A stretch of DNA of 63,675 nt, filler included, from Bigelowiella natans CCMP2755 (lineage: Eukaryota; Protista; Cercozoa), in the NCBI GenBank assembly GCA_000320545.1. It is 6 parts of 6 records of this genome, joined end to end, with 100 filler letters (N's around TTAATTAATTAA, not from the genome) between each part and the next. Parts side by side here need not be neighbours in the genome. Positions count along the whole stretch, not along the records: positions 34,195 to 43,433 come from ADNK01001854.1; 5 more parts are not named here. One strand, written 5' to 3'. Below, one piece after another: positions 10,888 to 49,392 of this stretch. Positions within the stretch are counted from its first letter, which is position 1. Each line of letters begins with the position of its first letter. Both the position numbers and the translations under genes were made by a program. The notes under the pieces are model-generated. The model did not search any database. It was not told where the DNA came from and worked only from the letters and a program-made list of their open reading frames with translations.

Positions 10888-11069
10888 CTAACCCTAACCC
10901 TAACCCTAACCCTAACCCTAACTTTAACCCTAACCCTAACCCTAACCCTAACCCTAACCCTAACCCTAACCCTAACCCTAACCCTAACCCTAACCCTAAC
11001 CCTAACCCTAACCCTAACCCTAACCCTAACCCTAACCCTAACCCTAACCCTAACCCTAACCCTAACCCC
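10888..11069. repeat. Telomeric (CCCTAA)n array at the start of a contig, i.e. a chromosome end
   Basis: About 30 CCCTAA units with one irregular patch near 10918-10927. C-rich strand on + at the contig 5' end, which is the orientation expected for a left telomere. Confidence 0.95.
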
Positions 11070-12076
11070 AGAAAACAGCATGAGCGTGCCGCATCAGCAG
11101 TGCCATCAGGCCACGTGTTCGCTTCGAGCTGAAACCCGAGCTCATTTGCACCGCCAAAAAGCAGCAGGAACCTTGCCTCTGATGGTTTCATCAATGAAAC
11201 TTCGCTTTCAACTGACACTTGGTGCTGCCACAGGCTGGGACCATCCAACTTGATGGTGATTGATGTGTGCAAGCTGCTGGTCCCTGACCCCAATCCTGAT
11301 CCTGACCCTGACCCCAACCCTGACCCCGAACCCTGACCCGAACCTGACTCTGGCGCCAACTCTGAATCTGACCCCCAACCTGACCAGTTTTTTCCTCCAA
11401 TTTTTTGAAAAAAAAACCTTTTTGAATTTTTGTCACCAATTTTTCCAACTTGGACATCAGTTTCGACCGTCATTGCCACCGCCAATTGTTTTTGAATCTG
11501 GTCCAGAACAGAACCCCGCCAACCCTGACCCCATGCCCAACGAACCCTTTGTGGTTGCGCCAGTTGCAAGTGCAGCATGGCCAGTGTGCTTCTTGATGAT
11601 TGTCATTCACACACATGCACCCACTTGCACACTCACGTGCACGCACGCACAATCTGTGAAACCTTGGTCAATTTTGACAAAGGAGGTCAAACATGTTTTT
11701 GTGTCGTTTGTTGCATGTCAAAATCGGGCTTTCAGTTTGCCATGACACTCTCTGGATGATCAAGGCTCATGATTGTTGCAATGGAAGTTTTTCAGATGCA
11801 ACCTGGTGTTGATCATGATCACATCAAAGAGCAAAAATGCATGAAGCCTTGGATCCAAAGGACTTGTTTTGGACGATGCAGCACGGGGCTCACGTGCAAC
11901 ACAACATTGCACACGTTTTTTTTCACATTGCCATGTGACGTGCGCAATGTGCAATGCTCCACCTTGTTGCACTGCGTGACGCATGTTGCACCACACCAAA
12001 CGCACTGAAACAATCGTTGAAATTCACAGACTTCATCCACAATTGAGTTCGATTCACATGTGAAACTCTTCTGAAA
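11065..12076. other. Subtelomeric TpA-free zone containing degenerate telomeric repeats
   Basis: No TA dinucleotide between 11065 and 12076; CCCTGA/CCCCAA units at ~11282-11385 and ~11515-11540. Confidence 0.9.
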
Positions 12077-20100: not shown

Positions 20101-22340
20101 GTTATTGATCTGATTATGAACAAGCGAAGAGAATGCAGATGGTAATGACCTTCGTTTCTTTCTGTATCAAGATTGACGACAGACTACGACAAATAATACA
20201 ACATCTCATCTTTCTCTTCCTAGTACTACCTGTGCGATAATGGCGAGTTCGTCCATTACGTTAGATTGAAGAGAGTTTGCTGTTCTCTTGTAGTCCCACG
20301 CCAAATAGGCAATCTTATGTTCATCAGGTAAGAAACGATTGAGGAGCTCAACAGTGGTGCCAAAACGACGGCCAATGATTGATTCCCTGGGTCTCTTTTC
20401 GTGCTGACGAACGAGATTTACAGCAATCACAGGAGACCCATATCTCCTGAATAGATCAGCAAAATGTCTCCCAGTAGTCAGCCCCAAGGGATCCTGTTTC
20501 TGCAGAACAATTTCTGGTTTTGCGACCATCTTTCGTCCTTGCTGCGTCCAGAAGAGGGGAATGGAGGCTCTGTTCTGTACATAAGATGAATATCTTCCTG
20601 TACCAATTTGGTCCACGGAAACCCTATCGAAACCATTCACGATTTGTTCGACCTCAACATCATTGGCCACCTCTCCGCGATTTGAGACACCGCGCTTGAG
20701 GTACCTTGTCCCAGCAAAGAGCCTAGACCTCCTCGCAATAAGAGTAAGTGCTATTTGCCTTCCGAAGACACTGCAGCATGTTTGTTCAAAATAGCCATGG
20801 ATGAGGTTTAGATGCCATCCAGGGTCTTTCACACGCTCTCGCAGTGCTTGCTGCAGGAAGGAGTTCCATATGTAACGACTACGTGGTGATCGTTGCTTGC
20901 CGGCGTTAGGTTCTGGTGAATGAAGTCCCTTCCTCCCATCTGCCCCCGTCGTGACTATCTTGGGTGCTCCATCTACAGCAGGTACGCCAACGGGCTTATC
21001 CGCATTAACCATGTTATATTGCATCGTACGGGTTAGATCATATGTGTATGAGTAGTAGAAGTCTTGCTTCAGTTGGATCAAACAGAATAGTCTTGTGTAT
21101 CTCGCTTCGATGGAGCGAGATTGCTTATTGTGGACCGAATTTGGAGCTCGTTCATACACACATGGATTAGTAAGAGGGACGATCGCCGTGTCTTGTACTG
21201 ACCATATGATATGGCTACCGAATGTCCCTGCTTGCCTCCTTGCCGTGATGAGAATCAGATAATGGCCATACAAGAAACGCACAAACCCGATAATCCCAAA
21301 AGCTGTTGCAATCTTCATTAAACCACCAGTGGATGCGTTACCTTCCTTGACCATCATCATCATCTGGTTGATCTCTGCACGAGTGTAGGAGGTTGGATCC
21401 TCTCTAATCTCAAGTTCAGGCGTCATACGATCGACTACAAGTAACTTGCATTCGTTACCTGTGCGGTCAATGCCAACTATGTAAAAACGAAGCGATGTAC
21501 GATATACCTAATATATTAAATATTACAAGCAAGGAACAAATTCAAATAATCGACCACCTTTCACCGGAACGACTTTTCCCTCCCAAAATATACGTAATGT
21601 CAAGCACACACCACGACGAATTGCACAGAAGATGACTAATATCACCTCAAACTGCTGGTACTTTCTAAGTAGCGGAGGCAATTTTACGGCAGTATGTCGT
21701 TGTTGCCTTGTTCTAGCCCCCCCCCCTTTTGCTTCTACTTTTGCATCCTCGCTGCTCCCCCCTGCCCCTTGTTCGGCATCTGTTGGGCTCCTGCCCACTC
21801 TCTTTGGATTATATTTTTCCGAGGGTTGAGTCGTGCGTGGAAGATGAAGCTTATACCTGATGGCCAGTAGGAGAAAAAAATTAATAATTTGAAAATTAGC
21901 ACAAATATATTACGAGTGCATCCCTAAATGTCCTTCAGCATAGTATGCTTATATGTGAGTTTACATGGTATTTTTTGCTACCGGTGTAGTTATTATGTTT
22001 GTATACTACGTTGCGAAATCAGTGCCTTCGAATACAACGGTGGCATCTCCAGATATTCGCCGTAGAATTCCGGACCGAACTAGTTTTTTCCCTGATGTCA
22101 TCAGTGAAATATGAAATAAATGTGGAACATCAGGGTAATGTGAATAGTAGGATTTTCTTTGCATGCTAGAGCTTGCTCATGTATGTGCTACTAAGAAGAT
22201 TGGATGGGATATCATTATGCCCTCTACGGTGCAACAAAGTAACCTAGAGTAATGGCTTCTTTGTGATCTTTGGCAAAGCTACTCTCCAGAAAAAATTTGA
22301 CTGCCCGAGAACCGCGGAAGCATCCACCTGTATCCTCGGG
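12109..22340 (-). CDS. FIG4: FIG4/SAC3-type phosphoinositide phosphatase, greatly expanded, with N-terminal DEP and internal PDZ-like domains; multi-exon, true start further 5' uncertain
   Basis: SAC domain motifs FYYSYTYDLT, RRSRLFAGTRYLKRG, VANDVEVEQIV, SSYVQNRASIPLFW, catalytic CX5RT (RVNCIDSLDRTN), GDRIAMQYGGS, KQDALNLLLG and the FIG4-type HLWELNSDYYFHN. The last two exons (~13065-12897, 12595-12109) splice in frame; their link to the giant exon is inferred. Confidence 0.9.
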
Positions 22341-25310: not shown

Positions 25311-25729
25311 TTTTGTTGTGTGTGCTGATTTCCCCCCCGTTCCCCCCCGTGTCGTGTTGATGCATCTTGTGCATGTTTGCAACACACAGATTCTGGAATA
25401 CAAGAAAGACTAGGCATGATGACACGAGCAGCTTCGATTCAGAAAAAGATTTTTTTTTCATCTGAATTGTTTGAACACGACATACACATCCACATTGCTT
25501 GTCCTAGATTCACCGCATGAGAATCATTTGCAGTCCATTGCAATTTCATGTTGACAAAGAGCTACGTGTCTATAATCTACGTGCCTGTGATGAATGACTG
25601 CGGCACATCGTGACTACGCGTACGCCTACGCTACACTGCACTGCATGTACGTCGCACGCATCATGCTAGCATGCTCGATGTGTTGTTAAATGACGAACGA
25701 GGAAAATGTTTCCATTCTTGTGTGCCACG

Positions 25730-27060
25730 TGGATGGCTAGAAGTTGAGTGCCTGGAGCGTGTGACACACACAGCTCACTTTTTCCGCCGATTTTCGTGAC
25801 AAAAACATTGCATGTTGAAACAGCAGTTCATCAATGATGATGACATCATTGTGGGTAGGTTGGTGTTGAGCTCCCCTGCTCTCTCACACAGCCCCCCTGC
25901 ATCGTGCGAAAAGCTAGCTGTGCTTCGATCCATATGATCGACGATCGTGATGGACCATTGCTGGAAAATTTTCAATTCATTGGGTGTGCGCAGCACTGTG
26001 CTGGCATGCTGCATCGCAGCGTGTTTGGCTGTGATGCTGCAGATCGACGCAGGCTTGCGGCTTGCGGTGCACATGCTAGCTGCATGCAAGAAACGTCGTG
26101 TGATGCATGTTGGCGCTTGCATGAGATGTGGATGTTCATGGCGGCACACATTGCGCTGTGTTTCCACAATTTGATGCAAACAACGCTGATAAGCTCCGAG
26201 CTAGAATCAAAGTGCAAGCATTGCCTGCTGTGCCACACGCCGCACTCCCTTGTTTTGTTGTTCCTGCATCACATCCCTAGCATCCGTCTCAGGTGGCATG
26301 CACACGTCGTGCATGCTGGCATGATGCATGCATGTGATGTGTGTGATGAAGAGTTGTTGATCAAATCTTTCCAATTCTCACATCGTGATCTAGCCATGCA
26401 AGGCAGCGCGGCTGCATGCATGTGTGCGTAGCTGTGCTAGCATTTCACCATTCTGCCATTGCACATCGCGTGCATCACTTTGTCTCTGTGTCAAACAATT
26501 GTGTGCACTCACGCGTGTTGCACGCATGCGAACAATGAGCATGTCGCATGGACACGTGTATCTCTGCACGTGCTAGCGTGCACCACCGGCCGTTGAGCAC
26601 ACATGAGCTGTGCATCTGTCGATGCAGATTGCAATCACGCGCATGTGCGCTAGCATGCACGTGTGTGGCTAGATGGACATGCATTTCTCTGCAGCGTGTG
26701 TCGCGAAACAGCTCATTGCTTCGCATCATGACTTGATGCGATGCCGCCTAAACAACCTGCTGCACGTTGCGCGCACCGCGACAGACCACTTTGATGGCAT
26801 CGAACGTTTCATCGTACGTTGCGCCGTCACGCCGTTGTTCTCGTCTAGCTAGCTACTAGTAGCTAGCCTAGCAAAAACATTCGCAGAGATATTGATCCAC
26901 TTTGCCCGCACATTGTCACGCTGCAGTGCGGTTCACTAGTGCATGATGGACATGCAACATGATGGACATGTACCACATTGCTGTGTCTATCATGTGCATG
27001 CGCATGAACACATCGCTAGAGCGGCAGACAACAAGTCATGCATTTCGCACCTCGATTCGT
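25730..27060. other. TpA-depleted, CpA/TpG-rich intergenic block; residual TA mostly in CTAG
   Basis: About 29 TA in ~1.33 kb, about 17 of them in CTAG (by-eye count). Confidence 0.85.
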
Positions 27061-28899
27061 TTAATGTCATTTTATAATTCTCGCTCGATTCTCATTTCCT
27101 GTGATGATTTGGCATGCGTGTACTGTCAGCAGCGTGAGCGTTGCGATTGATCGAGCACAGATGGCTGTTCCGCAGTGGGGGGCACATCGCTCATCGAATC
27201 AGCATCAGCATGCCAGGTCTCCATGCAAGTGAATTTCAGGCATTGCTCAATTGAATGTCCTCTGGAGAATTATAAAAATACATCACGTGTGCACGCGGGA
27301 CTAGAGGTTCTGCAAAATTAAAAGGCCTTCTCCAATGCAGCTAACATCTTCAACTTAGATGTTCAAGAGCATCACCGTGCTTGCATTAAAAAATTGCAAG
27401 ACGAAATTGACCAATTAAATTAATAACATAAACCCTCTATGTTTGTTGAGATACGATGTCATAGCGACATTGCATCACGATGTTTGTAAATAAACTCAAT
27501 TAACTTTCCCCAGCAAAATACAAATAGCCATGCTAACACCATTAGTATTTTCTGAATGATGGTTCCAATTATGATGAAGAACCTGAAGTAGTAGTAGAGA
27601 TAAGAAGAAACACGAGTGTTGCTAGTTAGGGTAATACTCTAGATTATAATTATGATAAAATAAATGATAATGTTGATGATGATGAAATTGAACAAGTCGA
27701 CGATGATTGGATAGTAACGTTTACCAACGACACTGACAACTAATTTCTTATCCGTGAAATTTATTTATTTTATGTCCCTCCTTTGTCAATTGATGTTCAT
27801 ACATAGTACCAATAGAGAATCTTGTTCTTGGAAAAATATCGTCTGTTTAGTTAATTTTTTAATATCAGTTCAGAATCTTATTTGGTGGAGTAAAATACTG
27901 GTTGGCTAGTTTTTTTTTGTTCTAATATGGTTGTATAGTAAAATAAGCTGCGGAACTATAACGAGCATAGCAATACACTACACCAGTTGTAATCCATGAT
28001 ATAGTAGTATTGCTATATTGACTACGAGGTAGCATATTAAATCAATGTCAGTCAATTGCCTATTTAGAGCTAGAATCACCTGCATTTTACGACTGTGCGT
28101 TTTATACCGCAGAAATAGTTTTCAGATGGTAGTTGTCTGAAGGAGACCGCAGCATTCGATAATTGAAATAGTGATGACAAATTGTATTTAATAACGCTTT
28201 GTATGTATGAATCATCGTACTACAGCTAATGATGGTGATACTATCAAAACAGCAATTCGACTAATTATCACTAGTCATCATCACCACACCATCATACAGA
28301 TAGTTGTTAAAATTTATGAAAGTTAAATCGTAGTACTATAATTATAATTACTATTATTTTTATTATCATTAATGCAACCACCTGTATTCTCTACACGTCA
28401 GCATATCCGGCAAATCAGTCATTATTTCTTTAATTGGTACTGCGAGCTCTGATCTGCTCACATTCAAATCAAGAATAACTTAATCACAACAGAGAAGAAA
28501 GGCAAGAGGGAGGAGAGGAAGAAGAAGAAGAAGAAACCACACAGCACACAGCACACACAGCACACACACACACACACACAAACCTGATTGGCTGATGCGA
28601 CCAGTAGCAGGACCCGAAAAATAGGAAAACGATAAATAGAACCAACCTATTATTATACATACAACGAATAACAATAATAATGATAATTATAATAATTATA
28701 ATGATAACAATAAATTGAGAAGATCGAACAACATCCTTCGATAATAAATAATAGTTACAATTATACTAGTAATAACAAATTGAGAAGATCGAATAACATT
28801 CTTCGCAAATAATTTACAAACATGTACCGTAGTGTATTGATAAAATATAAGCTAATTACTCTAGCATTGTTTAACAAACTACTCAACTAATAAAATATA

Positions 28900-36597: not shown

Positions 36598-36963
36598 CTT
36601 CTCGTTAAAGCCTCGCAGCCAGAAGACTCGTGAAAATTATTCTTGATACTGAGGGCCTGTGATCTCAGAGTCTACGTTCTTGTACCGCCAGGGGAGGGCT
36701 CGTTCACAGCAACGCCACGATGTTCTTCGGTTCCAGCCCCGAAGCCATTCCAGAGATGAGGGCAATATTGACGACGACAAGACAACTTCGATGTCGCAAG
36801 TGCGATCCGACAGATATTTCTAATTTATTTCGATAATAATCGCCGAAGCCCCGATTAAGAAAATAATTTCCTTCAAAGAGTTGTCGCCGTAAAGAAACGG
36901 AAGGCGTTATCGACCTAAACCTCAGTTTCGGATATCTTCCCTGGTGCTTCAACGGATGGGCTG

Positions 36964-38406
36964 ATGATGAGGAGGGCCCCCCCCGGCCCGACAGGCTGCT
37001 TGGTGGCCGGTTTGTTTATCCTTACGGCTACAACGAATGCAGGCTGGGGGGGGTCTTCGAAGGGCTCTCTGTCACATGGCTCCCGTGCTCCCGCGTCTGC
37101 TGCAGCTTCAGGTCGAGTGGCCACGCGTTGTTTGCTCAGGCCGACTAGAGGAGGTTTGCAGCGACGAGATGCGGTTATCCTAGGTGCTCTTAGGAAGACT
37201 TCGCCCTCCATCGTACGCATCGTTGCTCCGAATGGCCATGGAGTCAGTAAGAAGTGTCCTGAATATCAGCTGCCGGAGGAGGAGGAGGAGCTGCTCTCTC
37301 GGAAGCTCTTCTGGCCGGATTTGGACGGGTACCACCACCATTCCTACCAGTACCTACTTACCATCGGCTACGACGGCAGTGCGTTCAGCGGCTGGCAGAC
37401 GCAGAGTGCTACGATTTCATCATCGTCGTCGTCGTCGTCATCATCATCATCGTCATTATCATTCTCACAGCCTGCCCTAGGCAAAACGAAGAAGCCTCAG
37501 GATTTCATGACCCAGGCGGCATCAGCACCGGTAGGGAACGGCAAAGAACATCCGGGCACATACCCAACGCCTATTCCAAATAGAGCTGTGCAGGATGTCC
37601 TCACAAAGGGATTGTGCCGCGCCCTGGGGCTGGATCCTAATTCAGAGTTCTTTTCTCCATCACCGCTGCCAGTACCGTCATCGAGCGAGCTCGATACTAC
37701 AACCAATACCGTCAGAAACCGAACAGCAAAGGAATTACTCTGTGTCCGGTCATCGGGTCGAACTGACGCCGGTGTGCACGCGACGGGGCAGGCAGTAACG
37801 TTCATGAGCCGAAGGAGGCTAAATCCTGAGAAAGCTCTCCTGGCCATCAATAGACACCTGCCGCCAACTCTGCGCGTGATGAGGGTAAGGGAGGTGCCCC
37901 CTACCTTCCATCCAAGCCTCGACGTCGTGTGTAAAACCTATCAGTACACGGTAAGTAGTAGTCTTGTAGCGTAGCGCAACGGTGGTGGCCACTATCAGTA
38001 TCATCAGTATAGTCGTCATCATCGTCACTACCATCATCACCAACGACCTAATCATTAAGTTAGCATTGTTGCCGACTTCCCTGCCGCCGTGCTGCTCTTT
38101 TTGTTATTTTTGTGTCAGATTCACAAGCACGAGGTCATGGACCCGCTGTACAGGAGGAGGCGGATGCATTATCCCTGGAAGATCGACCTCGGTCGCTTGC
38201 GCGAGGCAGCCGACATTATGCAAGGTCCTCCCGCCAAAGACTTCCTCGCCTTTTCCAAGCGTAGACCCGCGGCTATTGATGAAGGTGACTACGTGACGCG
38301 GCAGAGAGGGGGGAAAATAGGTCTAAGGGTGATATCGTGAAACGCTCCTGCTGAAGTCCTTACGAGTCTCATTCGTGTTTTTTCACCAAGTGCTGTATGT
38401 ATCTGC

Positions 38407-38467
<61 letters not shown>

Positions 38468-38915
38468 CCTGTGTATGTATGTATTTCTCAGGGAGGGGTA
38501 GCGAACGCATCATCGATCGAATCGAGGTTGTGATGGTTTCCCACCCCGCACAAATCACGCAGCTCTGCCCGCGTAGCATTGCAACAGCTTGAGTGTCCTA
38601 GAGCGCTAACCGTCGTCGTCGTCGTCGTCGTTGTCGTTGTCCCTGTGAGCTTCCAAAAAATACCAACCCCCACATGTCACCCTCTCACCGTCGTCACCGT
38701 AAGCGGTGTGTGCATCGCCCCCTAGCTAAGTCGTACTCTATGCGCCCCCCCCACTCACCGCCCATCGCTCTCGCAGTGGCAGCAGGTAGAGGACCACGGA
38801 CTTCGAGTCGAGGTGGTTGGAAAGGGCTTCCTACACTGCCAGGTTGGTCGCGCAAAGCACACCGACTGATGCGAAGAATAGACCTCGGCGATGGAAATCG
38901 AGAGCGTAGTGCTCG

Positions 38916-38959
<44 letters not shown>

Positions 38960-39417
38960 GTGATGGTTTTTGTGTTTCACTCCACCAAAATGCTGTCAAC
39001 TCAGGTGCGGCACATGGTGGGCGCAATGCTTGCGTGCGCCCAGGGCCAGATCGATGTCGAATACATCGAATCGCTTCTTTCCCGCGTAAGAAGTCAACTC
39101 ACAGAATCTCGGAACACGCGCGCGCGCACACACACACAAACACGCGACACCGCCGATCTTTTCCCTTTCAGAGGAGAAGACTTGACCCTCACGAACACGT
39201 CTAGATGTACCACAGCAGAGATGAAGAGAATGAATTGGGGTTGCTGCGAGGGCAAAGAGCCTCGTACCTACATTTTCAAGTTCTGTGCTAACATGTCGTC
39301 ATGTTGTCCTATACTCAGAAGGAGCCTGCCGCACCAAAATCCCAGCTTCCTCAACCAAAATGGAAGCCTGCAGCGCCGCAGGGGCTTTGTCTGGTGCACA
39401 ACTATAAACTCTATTAA
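36964..39417 (+). CDS. truA: tRNA pseudouridine(38-40) synthase, TruA family, probably organelle-targeted; multi-exon
   Basis: LTIGYDGSAFSGWQ, SSGRTDAGVHATGQ (catalytic Asp), QVRHMVG, APQGLCL, stop at 39415-39417; hydrophobic then Ser/Arg-rich N-terminal extension. Confidence 0.9.
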
Positions 39418-39739
39418 AACGAATGTAAACACGTGCTCGTGGTCTGACGGGTTGTAGCATGCTGTGGAAGTGCATTAGAACATCACACCTTGCTCATCTT
39501 GCACGCAGGTTAATGTGGAGTACGGCGAAATCCCAAGCGACCCTAGAGAAAGTAGGAGTTTCTCAGTTCACGGCAATTGATGAGTCATTGACCCGGCATA
39601 GCCTTAATGGCTCTGCCATGTACACCCTGTTAGGACATGTGTGCTTTAGGACACATGTGAGATAGTTCAGTCTATATCAGGTATGCTTCAGAACACATGT
39701 GCGTCTAGTATACATGTGTTGCATTTACATGTTAATCAA

Positions 39740-39770
<31 letters not shown>

Positions 39771-40049
39771 TTATATATGCTATTACTGTGTCTTTATTTC
39801 ATCCTATTTGTCCCTATATATGCTAATACTATTTGAGTAGTCATCGCTGTACTGCTAACAACCCGCGCACGCATATTCTCCCGCTTGCTGCGCAGCTGCA
39901 TTTTAAGCGCATTCGCATCTAGATAACAACCAGATTGCATTGATTTTTTAATTGTAGCTAGCGCTATTACAAAATGTAATCTTATGAATCTTAAGTCCAT
40001 TTCCCTCAAGCTTAGCGCTATTCCCGCCGGACCTTGCTAGCTTATTAGA

Positions 40050-41270
40050 ACATTGAAAGCCAGCCTCTTTGTCATCTCACGATGTGCTGCATGGCGCGGG
40101 CGAGCGACAGAGAATCTCTCGGATGACATGGGGCATTGTGCGCACAATGCACACATGAGACGAATGTCAATGCGGTGATGTGGCTAATGAACAATGCAAG
40201 GAAAGGTGGTGGTTACGCAAGGGCCACACAAAAGAGCCTCACATGCATGAGACGGATGTGATGAAGAATTGAATTTTTTCAATGGTCATCCTGATGTGGC
40301 TGTGCAATGCAGCGGCTGCAGCGCTGATGTTGCATCTGTTGGTTTCTGCCACCACGTGCTTCATGCATTCGAAAGCGTCCTCATGCGACCGATGTTGCCG
40401 CGCACTGCGCGCAGCAGTTCTGGAGTCCTTTTCAGCTTTTGTCAGCCGGTTCGTGTCGTCGTTGCGATTCATGATCGCGCGCATTTGATTGCGCAATCTG
40501 ATTTGTTCTCGACTGTGTGTTGGACATTGCAGGAGATGATCCATGTCCTTCAGGATGCCACATGCATCGCACGTGGCATCTTCCTCCGTGCATTGTCCAC
40601 GTGAAAACGTGAATTTTCCAAGATTGCCGACACCACAGATGGCGCGCATCCATGGTGTAGCAACACTTGGAAGTTTCAGTTTGATGCCGGTGATCGAAGA
40701 TGACGGGAGGAATCCAAGATTCTTGAGATGCACAGCGCGCAATGAACCATTGGACCATTCCTCTTCGAATTCGTTGAAAGCACAGGATTTCATCACCTTG
40801 TGATGTTTTTTCAGTTCTTTTTTCAGCGCCTCTGTTGTCGCCAAAACGGTGGGCAATTCGTCGTCTAACAAATCGTCAGTGATCGATTTGAGCCGACGAA
40901 ACAAGGATGCTTTGTTCCACGCATTTGTGGACACATCAATCCACGATGTGCCATCTAGCATTTTTCGATTTTCAATGATGAAGTCACAACTGCTCCAATC
41001 ATTTGTTCCTCATGGATTTGAGGACCGCTGCCTGTGTCGATCCACGCATCAGTGCGCAACCATGATTTAGCACACTGCACTTCAGTTTGACATCGGGGTG
41101 GCAACGTGCCAGTGAGGACGTGGGGGACGTCGTTGGAGATGGATCCAGGTGATCCCAATGCACGTTTCAGGGTTTGGGATTCCATGGAATCCATCTGTTT
41201 CATTCGCATGTTTCTTCGTGATCTCCACATAGGAGCTGCGTATCTGCTGGATGCAAGGAACCATGATTTA
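40050..41270 (-). mobile_element. Degenerate 5'-truncated non-LTR retrotransposon (LINE ORF2 3' part), TpA-depleted
   Basis: Post-RT segment ESQTLKRALGSPGSISND..LTG..P..KSWLR (40955-41230), a frameshift, then a C-terminal CCHC knuckle CDACGILKDMDHLLQC. No Tyr in either ORF. Confidence 0.72.
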
Positions 41271-41356
41271 CAAAATTTTTAATTTAGCCTTGTACACACA
41301 TGTGTACACATCACATGTGTACATATGTGTACACATGTGTATATGTGTATGTGTAG

Positions 41357-41615
41357 GCTTTTGAATGCATGAAATACATAGTAGAAGAGGCAAATATATA
41401 TAACATGAGCACTGTTGTGCCGCTGCTTTGCAAAGCTACATCTGGTTGACTGTTAAAAACACTTAACCACTTCATTACATCCGTCTCATATGCTGTTTGA
41501 TGCATAAAACACACCATAGTGGAGACAAATAATAGGTATAACATAAACAATATGCGCGCTGCGCATAGCTACAATGACATGACTATTAAAAAGATTTAAT
41601 CACTTCATTACATCC
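41357..41615 (+). repeat. Two tandem ~130-bp fragments homologous, in inverted orientation, to the LINE ORF end at 40242-40376
   Basis: 41357-41492 (gcttttgaatgcatgaaatac...ttcattacatccgtctcat) and ~41497-41615 align with the reverse complement of 40242-40376. Confidence 0.85.
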
Positions 41616-45050: not shown

Positions 45051-45759
45051 CTGCTGTCAGGATGAAATGCGACGAGATGTTGTGTTTTATCAATAGAAAA
45101 TGAAGATGTACTGAAAAGAAAATTAAGATGACCGGATATGATCGTGATGTAAGACGGATGTAATAAATTAAATAAATTTGTCAATGGACATCCTCATGTA
45201 GCTGTGTAATGATCGTGATGTCACATTGTAGTCGTCATCTGACAGTTACATACACGCTAGCACGCATCATAACAGAGCTATGCTAGCTATGGCATGTTTT
45301 ATGTGTATTATTATACATGCCTAGATGCGTTGACGCAATAGCAACATAAAAATGACACTGTAATCATGCCATCTATACATCTGATATTTCTATAAACAAG
45401 CTGGTTGCGGTAAGGCAGTGTGCGCGCGCTTTAATGACACAGCAGTGAGTTTAGAATAATAACGACAACATGCTGGCTATATAGCTAGCTGGAAGCACAT
45501 GTACATTATTTCCAAAGCTAGAATCCATCACATATGTAATTATTGTATAATTGGCTACTGTGCTTTTAAAGTTAAGCTGCTAGGCTCCCGGCAGTGCATG
45601 GCTAAGCTACGTGCATAGCATGCATGCTGAACCGCATTATTACTTCAAATTTAGCTCATTGAGGCAATGGCTGACATAATAATCATTTCTGTTGACATGG
45701 GACATACGCATTGTAATAAGAGTACAAAAAGCTCTTATGAGGGAAGAGATTCGACAACT

Positions 45760-46893
45760 TCAATATCTCCATGTTGATTGAACTTCCATAGCCCATGGAA
45801 ACTTCGTGATAAGAGCAGCATTGAACACCTTCTCTAGAGGAACCTGACAAATGACGTACGTTGAAACCGGTGATAATATCTGACTGGTTATGTCGGTATT
45901 TAACCTCATTTCGCTTGCACCAAGCAACTGTGATTCGTGGGTCCATGTAGTTGATTTTGGACGTTCCGAGCGCAACAGCTTTGGTCTCATCTTTTGTTTT
46001 CATTTTTGTTTCCAAGTTGGAGATGCGTGAGAGATGCGTCTCGTATTGTCTATCCATCACGTCGGCGTTATTGCTGAACTTGAAAGTTTTTTCTCCGTCC
46101 TCCTCCTTATCAGATAGACGGGAATTCAATACTCGAAGAAATCGAAGACGACTTCACAAGCGGTTAGGTTGTACCTTTTTTGCTTTCTTTTTGGCCTTTT
46201 TACCCTTCTTCTTAGCCCCTTTCAGCATATCAATATGCTCTTCCATAGCTTCTTTCTGATAATATCCAAAACAACTCTAATCTCAGAGTGGGACGTATTT
46301 TGATCGATCACCGGCTGCTATTGGGGGATATGAATACTACCTTGAGGACGTACTCCTCCATCTTAGCTTCCATTTTCTCGACTTGGTTTGCATGCCCTTT
46401 GGGAATGGATCGCTGGTGGTTGCAGAGCTCCGCGACGATGCGATTGCAGCGGTTGTAGATGAACTGATAGCGAGTGAGAAGAAGACACAATATGAGGAGG
46501 CGAGGATGATTCCCTTTTTGAAGTTCCGTACCGCACCCCCCCCCCCCCCCCCCCTCACTCTCTCTGTCTCTCTCTCTCTCTCTCACACCGTTTTCTCTCC
46601 AAGTGAGGTTTCCGGGGTGCATTCGTCGTTGCATTTTTCAAGTTCCTATGAATTATATAACCCAAGCGTTATGCGTGCACTACGAAGCTCGGCTTTTGTT
46701 ATTTTGATTGGAGCTGCAAATCACCCGTTGCAAAGTGATGGACGCGTTGTAGGTACGGAACACTTTCGCACTTAGCTTATCCATGTACGTTTGAAGCTTG
46801 GCGTTCAGGCTATTCGGATTGATCTTATTGAAAAGCAACTGCTGCTTTTTACTTTGGGTTCTTCTGCTCGCAGACTTCCACATTTTGCTACAC

Positions 46894-46933
<40 letters not shown>

Positions 46934-47087
46934 TGAGGACGACGCAACAACGTAAAAAAAAAGTCTCTTCTTCTTCTTCTTCTTCCAGTCAGAAATAGTG
47001 GTCGGTACGTACTAGAGTTTTTTGTAGAAAGGCTTCTCTATCTTGATCTTTTCATCGTATGGCATCGAGTCCTGATATATGTACATA

Positions 47088-47118
<31 letters not shown>

Positions 47119-49392
47119 ATTTGTATATATTTTCTACATATATGATTTTGAGGGCGGGAGAAGGGGGCGAGTTGAGAATGGGGAGGGAGAGACAGATAAA
47201 GAATCGATGCGAAATTCTGACAGATACGATTATTACACACCTTCCCGAGAAATTTGAGTCTGATGAACGTGTCCTCCGCGGTGATTTGCATATCCTCATC
47301 AACAAAAAATATGTGCTCAGCGCGAAGAGAACAACACCCAACCGTATCAGCCTTGTCCTCGCCCTGAAGAAGAAAACAAGAAGAATAGCCTGTCTTCAGC
47401 AAGCAGCTGTTTACTATTCGAGGTAGTAGCATGATTACCTTCTCGTTTCCCATACGAAGGGCGAGGCGATCGATGAGATAGATTGCCACCGCCATCTCAT
47501 ACTCATCGTCTTTCGCACTCTTTATCAATTTGTTATATTCATCGCGGATCCTTCCGATAACGTCCTTCAGTTTTCTAGACTTCTCGTATTTGAGGAAGTC
47601 ACTCATGCCTTTTCGATGGATAATGGAAAACATTGCAGCAATCGGCAGTCAGAGAGGGTGGGGGGTCTTTGGGAGCGGTACCACACGCATTTTCATGAAA
47701 GGGAAGGAGGGGGGCGTGGGGTGAATAATACCTTTGAATTTTGAGCTAGCAGCAAGCCATACATACTTGTAATCCCCGTTGATGTTGTCGATCCAGTAGG
47801 CCAACCAAGTGACTTTGGGGTTGTGGATAACGCCCTTCCAGTTGTGCCCAGCCATTGGACATTTCGGGATCTTGGCTCCTTTGCCGATGTTCAGTGTGAT
47901 CTGCTCTGGCTTCACCCGCTTTTTCACCAGCCCTGTCTTCGGATGTTCTCCACGACCGCGAAAGAGTCCTGGAGGCTCCACGTTGTAGTTTCCGACCCTC
48001 TCTCGAAACCCGTCCACCAACGCGTACCCGTAAATGTCAAGAAGCCGCTCTTTCTCCGCCTTGATCTTCTCCTTGTTTTGCTTTCGCAGAATCTTCTGCT
48101 CCTCCTTCCGTTCCATAGCCCAGTCGTAAATGGGCCTGAAATCGCATTTGCTAAATTTCTTTATCTTGTGGTTCTTGCCCAACAACTCCCTGAAGCACTT
48201 GAAGAAGTTTTTTTGAAATACAGGTTTTTTGGCATGGTCGGTCTCCAACATAACTCCAAAGAACGTGGCAACCTCCTCCTGTTCGGGAGTTAGCTCTACT
48301 TCCTCACCATCATACTTCATCTTGATTCCGTGAGGCTCGTAAGCAGGTGGAAACAAAACGCCATTATGTTCTAAGGTGTCCCACTTCTTCGTCCTTGCTA
48401 CGTAATTTCCCTCTTCGAGGTTTTCCCACCAACGGTCTACCGCTTCACTGCGAAGTGGTGCTGCCTCGCGGGTCTCGTATTTTGAGGGATCGAACCTTTT
48501 GACATTTCCAACTTTATTCTTGGATGACGAACTTGCAGCGTAGCCGTCCTCGAAGTCGGAATCGTCGTCGGAGTCATCGCGCCTCCTTGGGGTTGCCTTC
48601 TTCTTCTTCTTTCCCTTTGCTGGAGGTCGCTAAAAAACACATCATATGTGAGGAATGCAATGCTAGTCTTTTTAAAATAAGGCTAGAAACCTTCTTCTGC
48701 GGAGGTTTTCGGCTCTTACGCACAACGTCTATCAATGGGGCGTCATCTGAGTCATCGTCTGAGTCATCGTCTGAGTCATCCCCATTATCACCATTTTCAT
48801 AGTCAGCATCTGCTTTGTTTCCATCTCCTCCCTGCGACGCTTTTGGTTTTAAGGGCTTGTCGTCACTACTATCATCACTATCATCACTATCATCCTCTCC
48901 ATTGCCCAGGCCGTTCTTCTCCACCTCCATGGGCTTTGATTTCTTCGACTCTTCCCGTTTGATCGCAAGTGGTACATCATCGTCCGAGTCATCGTCGCTT
49001 TCTATAATGCGTCGACCGGTCTTGATTTTGTCTGTGGAGCTCTGGATACCAGACTCATTCACACCGTTCGCCTCTGAGCTTCCCTTTCCGTCAGACTCGG
49101 ATTCGATTTTTTGTTTCTTCAATGAGCCTGCTGGGTTTTCTTTCCCATCTTCCCCTGGCTTCCTCTTCTTTGAGAGAACCGTTGAAGAAACATCATCAGA
49201 CATAGCGCCGATTTTTGGGGGTGGGCTTGCGGCAACCAAATTTGCTTTGAACGTTGCTTTTCCAAAGAGGTCGTCGCGAATATGAAATAGATTGTATTTC
49301 ATACCTGTGACATCAATATTGATCCTTTTCTCTTCATTCCCGATTTTCCGCTTTCCCGCCAGATTTATTCTGGAATTCTTGCGTGAGGACAA
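45760..49392 (-). CDS. TOP1: DNA topoisomerase I (type IB), multi-exon; start uncertain (ATG 49203 or further upstream)
   Basis: [79 protein letters not shown], active-site [18 protein letters not shown]. Confidence 0.97.

Follow-up and report, generated by a model that had tools for sequence, protein, structure and literature searches.

The window, a stretch of 63,675 nucleotides of the Bigelowiella natans genome, carries the remnant of a LINE on its minus strand, together with short tail copies of the same family and two further TA-poor patches (see the table). The host genes nearby are a tRNA pseudouridine synthase-like gene (36919-39200), DNA topoisomerase I (45683-48629) and a long ORF (20206-21507), which we take to resemble a SAC-domain phosphatase. 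With the B. natans model Bigna1/48614 the topoisomerase I shares 99% identity, against 72% for the next chlorarachniophyte. Palindromic repeats of the ACACATGTG type flank the LINE at 39635-39730 and 41289-41350.

Features of the window that bear on the LINE copy and on TA loss
Feature	Position	Strand	Remarks
5'-truncated LINE copy	40242-41278	-	ORF2 C-terminal 336 codons (41278 to 40272) and 3' tail; 7 TA, 66.5 expected
CCHC zinc knuckle	40524-40571	-	C-x2-C-x7-H-x3-C; 4/4 ligands kept; spacing as in intact relatives (alignment)
1-base deletion (frameshift)	41007-41008	-	one more letter here in other copies
Former ORF2 stop, now CAA	40269-40271	-	relatives end here; TAA here in short tail copies
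Sole remaining Tyr codon	41240-41242	-	just outside 40050-41230, in less-edited 5' edge
Remaining TAs of 40050-41230	40185, 40214, 40658, 40866, 40956, 41068		CTAA, TTAC, GTAG, CTAA, CTAG, TTAG, in that order
TA-poor stretch past LINE 3' end	40047-40241		195 bases; 2 TA, 10.8 expected
Short tail copy, same LINE family	41349-41489	+	about 140 bases; TA kept; 12 TA, 13.7 expected
Second short tail copy	41490-41615	+	TA kept; 14 TA, 13.1 expected
Another short LINE tail copy	45152-45211		TA kept; 6 TA, 7.0 expected
Second TA-poor patch	25330-27120		47 TA; degenerate LINE tail at 26327-26416
Fully stripped patch	11070-12076		1007 bases; 0 TA, 67.6 expected

Full-length ORF2 proteins with endonuclease (EN) and reverse transcriptase (RT) align in two frames to positions 41278-40272 of the minus strand (tblastn; P0006, E 1e-119; P0004, E 5e-98), which bears out the LINE homology claimed in a preliminary description of this DNA; P0004 itself holds the domains PF14529 (E 1e-17) and PF00078 (E 2e-16). 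The window copy is collinear with the APE-type non-LTR ORF2 proteins P0004, P0006 and P0018 (Exo_endo_phos_2 and RVT_1), to which it is 56-66% identical over 336 residues, and it shares with them the C-terminus and the CCHC knuckle, which had been recognised from the outset. Unlike them, it possesses neither endonuclease, RT nor the usual stop, and it contains a frameshift; an endonuclease and an RT of its own in a single open frame, the mark of an autonomous LINE, are not found in it. Since other copies run on beyond 41278, where they have loose ends and the window copy stops, and since they carry the extra letter at 41007/41008, the stretch is a LINE 3' end, 5'-truncated and frameshifted, that corresponds to the last 1.04 kb of ORF2 and lies on the minus strand. 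Past the lost stop, the frame continues for 10 codons to a TGA at 40241-40239. The best named matches to the copy are B. natans gene models. A Pfam search of its frames returned no LINE domain, just a sub-threshold zinc-finger match, and an exact search for a target-site duplication returned just a 6-base chance match, an edited duplication being one that would escape such a search. A pattern-based search for relatives confirmed none of 64 pattern matches in metagenome contigs and none of 118 in viral contigs.

An assembly artefact was ruled out, since contigs of four runs are identical in every letter to the flanks and to parts of the copy. At a likeness of at least 98% and with patchy cover, four DNA runs show no difference from the window copy at a TA site, neither of the two differences listed lying at TA, and contigs of three runs at single-copy depth cross 41007/41008 gap-free against the window, so that the deletion is common to them. 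Position 41026 is C in the window and G in single-copy-depth contigs of runs X2, X14 and X6, a possible assembly error or variant. The segment 40053-40184 stands at about twice the single-copy contig depth in X2, X8 and X14 but not in X6, and in X2 a second contig with 18 differences runs across 39850-40082; this second contig and the doubled depth could reflect either a difference between strains or a paralogue of the flank.

TA loss in the LINE copy

In the interval 40050-41230, 6 of 1180 dinucleotides are TA, whereas 74.2 would be expected for its base composition (O/E 0.08), and the minimum across 10,000 base shuffles of the interval was 47; the count first given, about 6 TA in about 1.2 kb, and the contexts listed for the survivors prove exact. 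CA and TG jointly reach an O/E of 1.61, CG stands at 0.98, AA is not depleted (0.96), and the host coding ORFs of the window (n=4) have TA O/E values of 0.56-0.75. The TA and CpA+TpG values of the interval satisfy the cut-offs that Mettrop et al. set for B. natans (TpA O/E at most 0.43; CpA+TpG O/E at least 1.52), although the patch of 1.2 kb is shorter than the three 1-kb windows by which these authors define a cluster. Tyr, said to be missing altogether, is indeed absent from all of the about 320 in-frame codons of the interval, an absence that is not independent of the TA loss because both Tyr codons start with TA; the less-edited 5' edge (41230-41278) has 3 TA where 4.3 are expected. His, Cys and Met had been called frequent. 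Over the same 336 columns, the window copy, its least-edited sister P0066 and P0018 have 12, 9 and 9 Cys, 13, 10 and 7 Met, and 12, 13 and 11 His, respectively, so that Cys and Met are slightly above the relatives and His is not raised.

The direction of the changes was evaluated against other copies, from which the window copy differs at 186 places in DNA, the best-supported 40 being classified. Among these 40, 11 read TG or CA here and TA elsewhere, and a single one shows the reverse (TA here, CA elsewhere); on the plus strand the 11 comprise 3 TG and 8 CA, so that both strands have been changed. Of the remaining differences, three set TG against CA, five set CG against TG/CA, and about 17 others fall outside a pure TA rule; the TG/CA pair at 40514-15 is equally compatible with an ancestral CG. 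A strand-restricted A to G change of the ADAR type does not fit these changes. At the protein level, reverting TG/CA to TA accounts for 10 of the 23 residues that differ from P0030 and 26 of the 102 that differ from P0003, the other A/G context classes for at most 3 and 7. Intact homologues do keep Tyr, as had been supposed: the window copy has Cys in place of four and His in place of two of the seven Tyr in P0003, each one transition away from a Tyr codon.

A rise in score upon restoring TA, the test named in the preliminary description, was obtained in guided form. On a profile built from five intact relatives, the copy rose from 531 to 592 bits (+61) upon guided restoration, with a gain of at least 1 bit at 25 of 103 TA-class sites, whereas six other classes, equally guided as controls, brought +5 to +9 bits each and gained at 20 of 529 sites (Fisher p=3e-10), among them AA at 6/89 and CG at 4/131. 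Blind reversal of all 197 TG/CA sites creates 19 stops and lowers the score to 370 bits, and only guided restoration is therefore informative. These comparisons show a loss by change of TA to TG and to CA on both strands.

The protein had been described as ruined by missense change in frames that stay open. This is overstated: 307 of 335 residues (92%) are as in P0066, 28 differing, and the knuckle is kept, so the protein has not been ruined by missense. No new stop has appeared and the natural one has been removed, but the 1-base deletion splits the frame. The copy is dead, as was said, being truncated and frameshifted, and the first causes of its death are the 5' truncation and the frameshift rather than missense. 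RIP creates TA and stop codons. The process seen here resembles the RIP of fungi in being dinucleotide-specific, in affecting both strands and in hitting repeated or mobile DNA, and it differs from RIP, whose C to T change raises TpA and makes stops, in removing TA and the natural stop, a contrast drawn already in the preliminary description.

Surviving contexts and other TA-poor patches

Five of the six TAs that remain in the interval have a 5' C or a 3' G, against 41% in the background (p=0.047 on its own), in agreement with what had first been noticed, and the bias is strongest for CTAG. In the second TA-poor patch, CTAG makes up 20 of the 47 surviving TAs, against 5% in the background (p=3e-14), and still 15 of 40 (p=4e-10) once one short repeat cluster is set aside; edited forms of CTAG number 5 against 8.9 expected by background, while those of other contexts are in large excess. 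The fully stripped patch adjoins an intact telomere array of 28 CCCTAA units (10889-11068), and inside it lie 17 telomere-like units (11282-11384), none with TAA, 10 ending in TGA and 4 in CAA. CTAG is gone from this patch as well and is therefore the last to go, not immune. By these counts CTAG is the most resistant context and the survivor bias towards C-TA and TA-G is real, the unavailability of the unedited patch ancestors limiting the test. A Pfam search of three ORFs from the two other patches gave no matches.

TA is kept close to the depleted copy. In the segment that it shares with the short tail copies, the long copy has 0 TA where 9 are expected, whereas the short copies 70 bases away keep theirs; of 13 sites where the first short copy has TA, 6 are CA, 5 TG and 2 GA in the long copy. 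This contrast fits a sharp border of the target, such as a length or domain limit, or equally the arrival of a window copy that was already edited. The TA-poor stretch past the LINE 3' end (40047-40241) may likewise represent either a spread of editing or sequence brought from a donor locus.

Edits common to sister copies

The sister P0062, which reaches 128 codons further 5' than the window copy, differs from P0066 at 26 positions, 19 of TA type and 2 of the reverse, in classes that are loose when drawn from amino acids alone; most of its private upstream edits are T to C on the sense strand, and its RT motif is HCDD where P0004 has YCDD. Twelve sites are altered in the window copy as well as in P0062, and at 11 of these the two carry an identical residue (p=0.003 against a coin toss), or at 10 of 11 (p=0.006) without column 220, whose T is also present in P0066. 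The lost ORF2 stop is common to the window copy and P0063. The agreement at 11 of 12 edits implies that both the window copy and P0062 derive from a single, already edited template. Retrotransposition, of which 5' truncation is characteristic, is the simplest and most likely route from this template to the window copy; DNA duplication or gene conversion could also be the source of the shared edits. In run X15, a commoner and less-edited version has 13 TA in 41001-41269 (O/E 0.71) and, in 40371-41000, 2 TA among the differences listed (up to 6 more differences lie there), against 40 expected. Contigs matched by TA-free pieces 61-72 bases long stand at 15-45x the flank depth, and depth rises steeply at 40222-40345, the conserved 3' end common to many short copies, contig depth being a rough sign of many copies only.

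Among the other relatives, TA-type exchanges, in loose and unrooted classes, run 16 forward to 4 reverse for P0030 against P0018 (p=0.012) and 47 to 20 for P0004 against P0018 (p=0.001). Within the P0004 cluster (full-length marine copies, 10 members), 12 of 21 distinct changes are of TA type and 6 are Tyr to His or Cys; some are clustered, as in P0028, where Y745H, L746P and I747M affect adjacent codons with both strand kinds. In the P0018 cluster (13 members), 0 of 48 changes are Tyr to His or Cys (p=0.0005 against the P0004 cluster). The cluster comparison leaves out indels, P0006 and P0019 and takes the best 15 of 86 members for the P0003 cluster; P0006 has 62 differences, with 8 forward and 8 reverse of TA type. 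Since sister copies have many of their changes in common, LINE copies that had already been edited probably continued to be copied.

The process behind the changes

De novo change of TpA to TpG/CpA has been reported for two viral regions integrated in the B. natans genome, at about 1000x background and in silent viral DNA, and RT, endonuclease-RT and DDE domains are enriched among TpA-depleted genes of this species, transposon targets being inferred from composition (Mettrop et al, bioRxiv 10.64898/2026.01.13.699255). The same authors put forward an ADAT-like adenine deaminase as a hypothesis, with Bn78255 as a candidate, and describe RIP as a C to T change (bioRxiv 10.64898/2026.01.13.699255). 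The window LINE agrees with their case in species, in the kind of change and in the mobile nature of the target, and is an instance of the process already described in B. natans in 2026. Our analysis differs in comparing the LINE copy by copy and in CTAG resistance, edits common to copies and stop loss. CTAG resistance, shared edits and the clustered marine edits are absent from the preprint's main text, as are the strings 'retrotranspos', 'telomer', 'context' and 'CTAG'; its Tables S2, S6 and S10 may hold contexts or the locus. Our literature search, with subscription journals outside its coverage, found no other reports of TpA hypermutation.

We consider it very probable that the stretch is a 5'-truncated, frameshifted LINE fragment in which TA was changed to TG and CA on both strands, likely by this TpA-specific DNA hypermutation. 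According to the hypothesis of the preprint, silenced mobile DNA would undergo deamination of the A of 5'-TA, a predicted step, and the resulting inosine would be fixed as G at replication. Editing may have occurred in layers, some in the family master, more in the template common with P0062 and a few edits later, and reverse transcription is the most likely way in which the window copy would then have been made from that template.

The context least edited here is TA with a 3' G, the one that ADAR favours, which argues against A-to-I editing of LINE RNA at UA, by an ADAR-like activity, prior to reverse transcription. Such editing would pass shared edits on through copies and would suit the 8 of 11 DNA-level edits that are A to G on the sense strand, as well as the 5' U preference of ADAR (noted in bioRxiv 10.64898/2026.01.13.699255). 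We nevertheless regard it as very unlikely, given that the other 3 edits and most private upstream edits of P0062 are sense-strand T to C, that P0028 has both kinds in three adjacent codons, that the telomere-like units are changed as well, and that de novo changes are seen in silent viral DNA (bioRxiv 10.64898/2026.01.13.699255). Decay of 5-methylcytosine (CG to TG/CA), combined with ordinary coding avoidance of TA, is more improbable still: TG and CA are raised as it would have them and a few differences do set CG against TG/CA, but CG in the LINE stands at O/E 1.0, host ORFs retain their TA and conserved Tyr is lost; the TA, not CG, that other copies carry at the 11 sites and the few gains of CG-class restoration largely refute it. 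Pairwise differences alone give no direction, and the window could on that basis be the older state, with TA made from CA/TG in the other copies by a RIP-like C to T change. The outgroups P0003 and P0004, however, carry Tyr, Ile and Leu where the TA-bearing copies do, these TA-bearing relatives have an open ORF2 of 1153-1158 residues, and it is the window copy that lost a stop codon; a RIP-like origin is refuted by outgroup polarity, and we give it practically no chance.

That TA is altered in silenced DNA by way of an error-prone polymerase or of a methyl-adenine mark, in place of a direct DNA deaminase, is unlikely but deserves more weight than these. It is favoured by AA to AG being the second-best class against P0003 (7/102), as the WA mutation signature of polymerase-eta would produce, and by the deaminase activity of Bn78255 being only a candidate in the preprint; against it stand the smaller share of gaining sites in the AA class than in the TA class and the undepleted AA. 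This alternative alters the enzyme, not the footprint.

Hypermutation of DNA at TpA thus remains our preferred reading, and it carries the compositional hint of transposon targeting in the preprint to a direct, copy-by-copy LINE case. What is added is the CTAG rule and evidence of further copying of LINEs that had already been edited, while we infer adenine deamination in DNA. Two testable handles on the enzyme are offered, the resistant context CTAG and the layered, inherited edits; a four-base rule sparing CTAG would, if true, fingerprint the enzyme. A change of TA to TG/CA cannot make an in-frame stop, and it would therefore wear proteins by missense while leaving elements copyable for a while. 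We tentatively suggest, as a possibility somewhat short of an even chance, that the LINE family goes unstopped: no new stops being made, edited elements would remain transcribed and keep retrotransposing, and LINE lineages of B. natans would have passed by repeated editing into TA-poor masters with few targets left (target exhaustion as an escape), under an editor that spares CTAG. If edited LINEs do still spread, the outcome of defence would be unlike that of RIP, a slow erosion of proteins with frames left open.

Few RNA reads of run X21 fall on the LINE body, and these have the letters of other copies, with no sign of the window copy being transcribed. On the short tail at 41579-41615, X21 reads show T-runs before 41579, as if the tail copies were opposite-strand polyadenylation sites. 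In the B. natans gene models P0001, P0002 and P0050 (kinesin and others), the LINE C-terminus is predicted as the last exon; these models are probably annotation chimeras, helped by stop-free frames.
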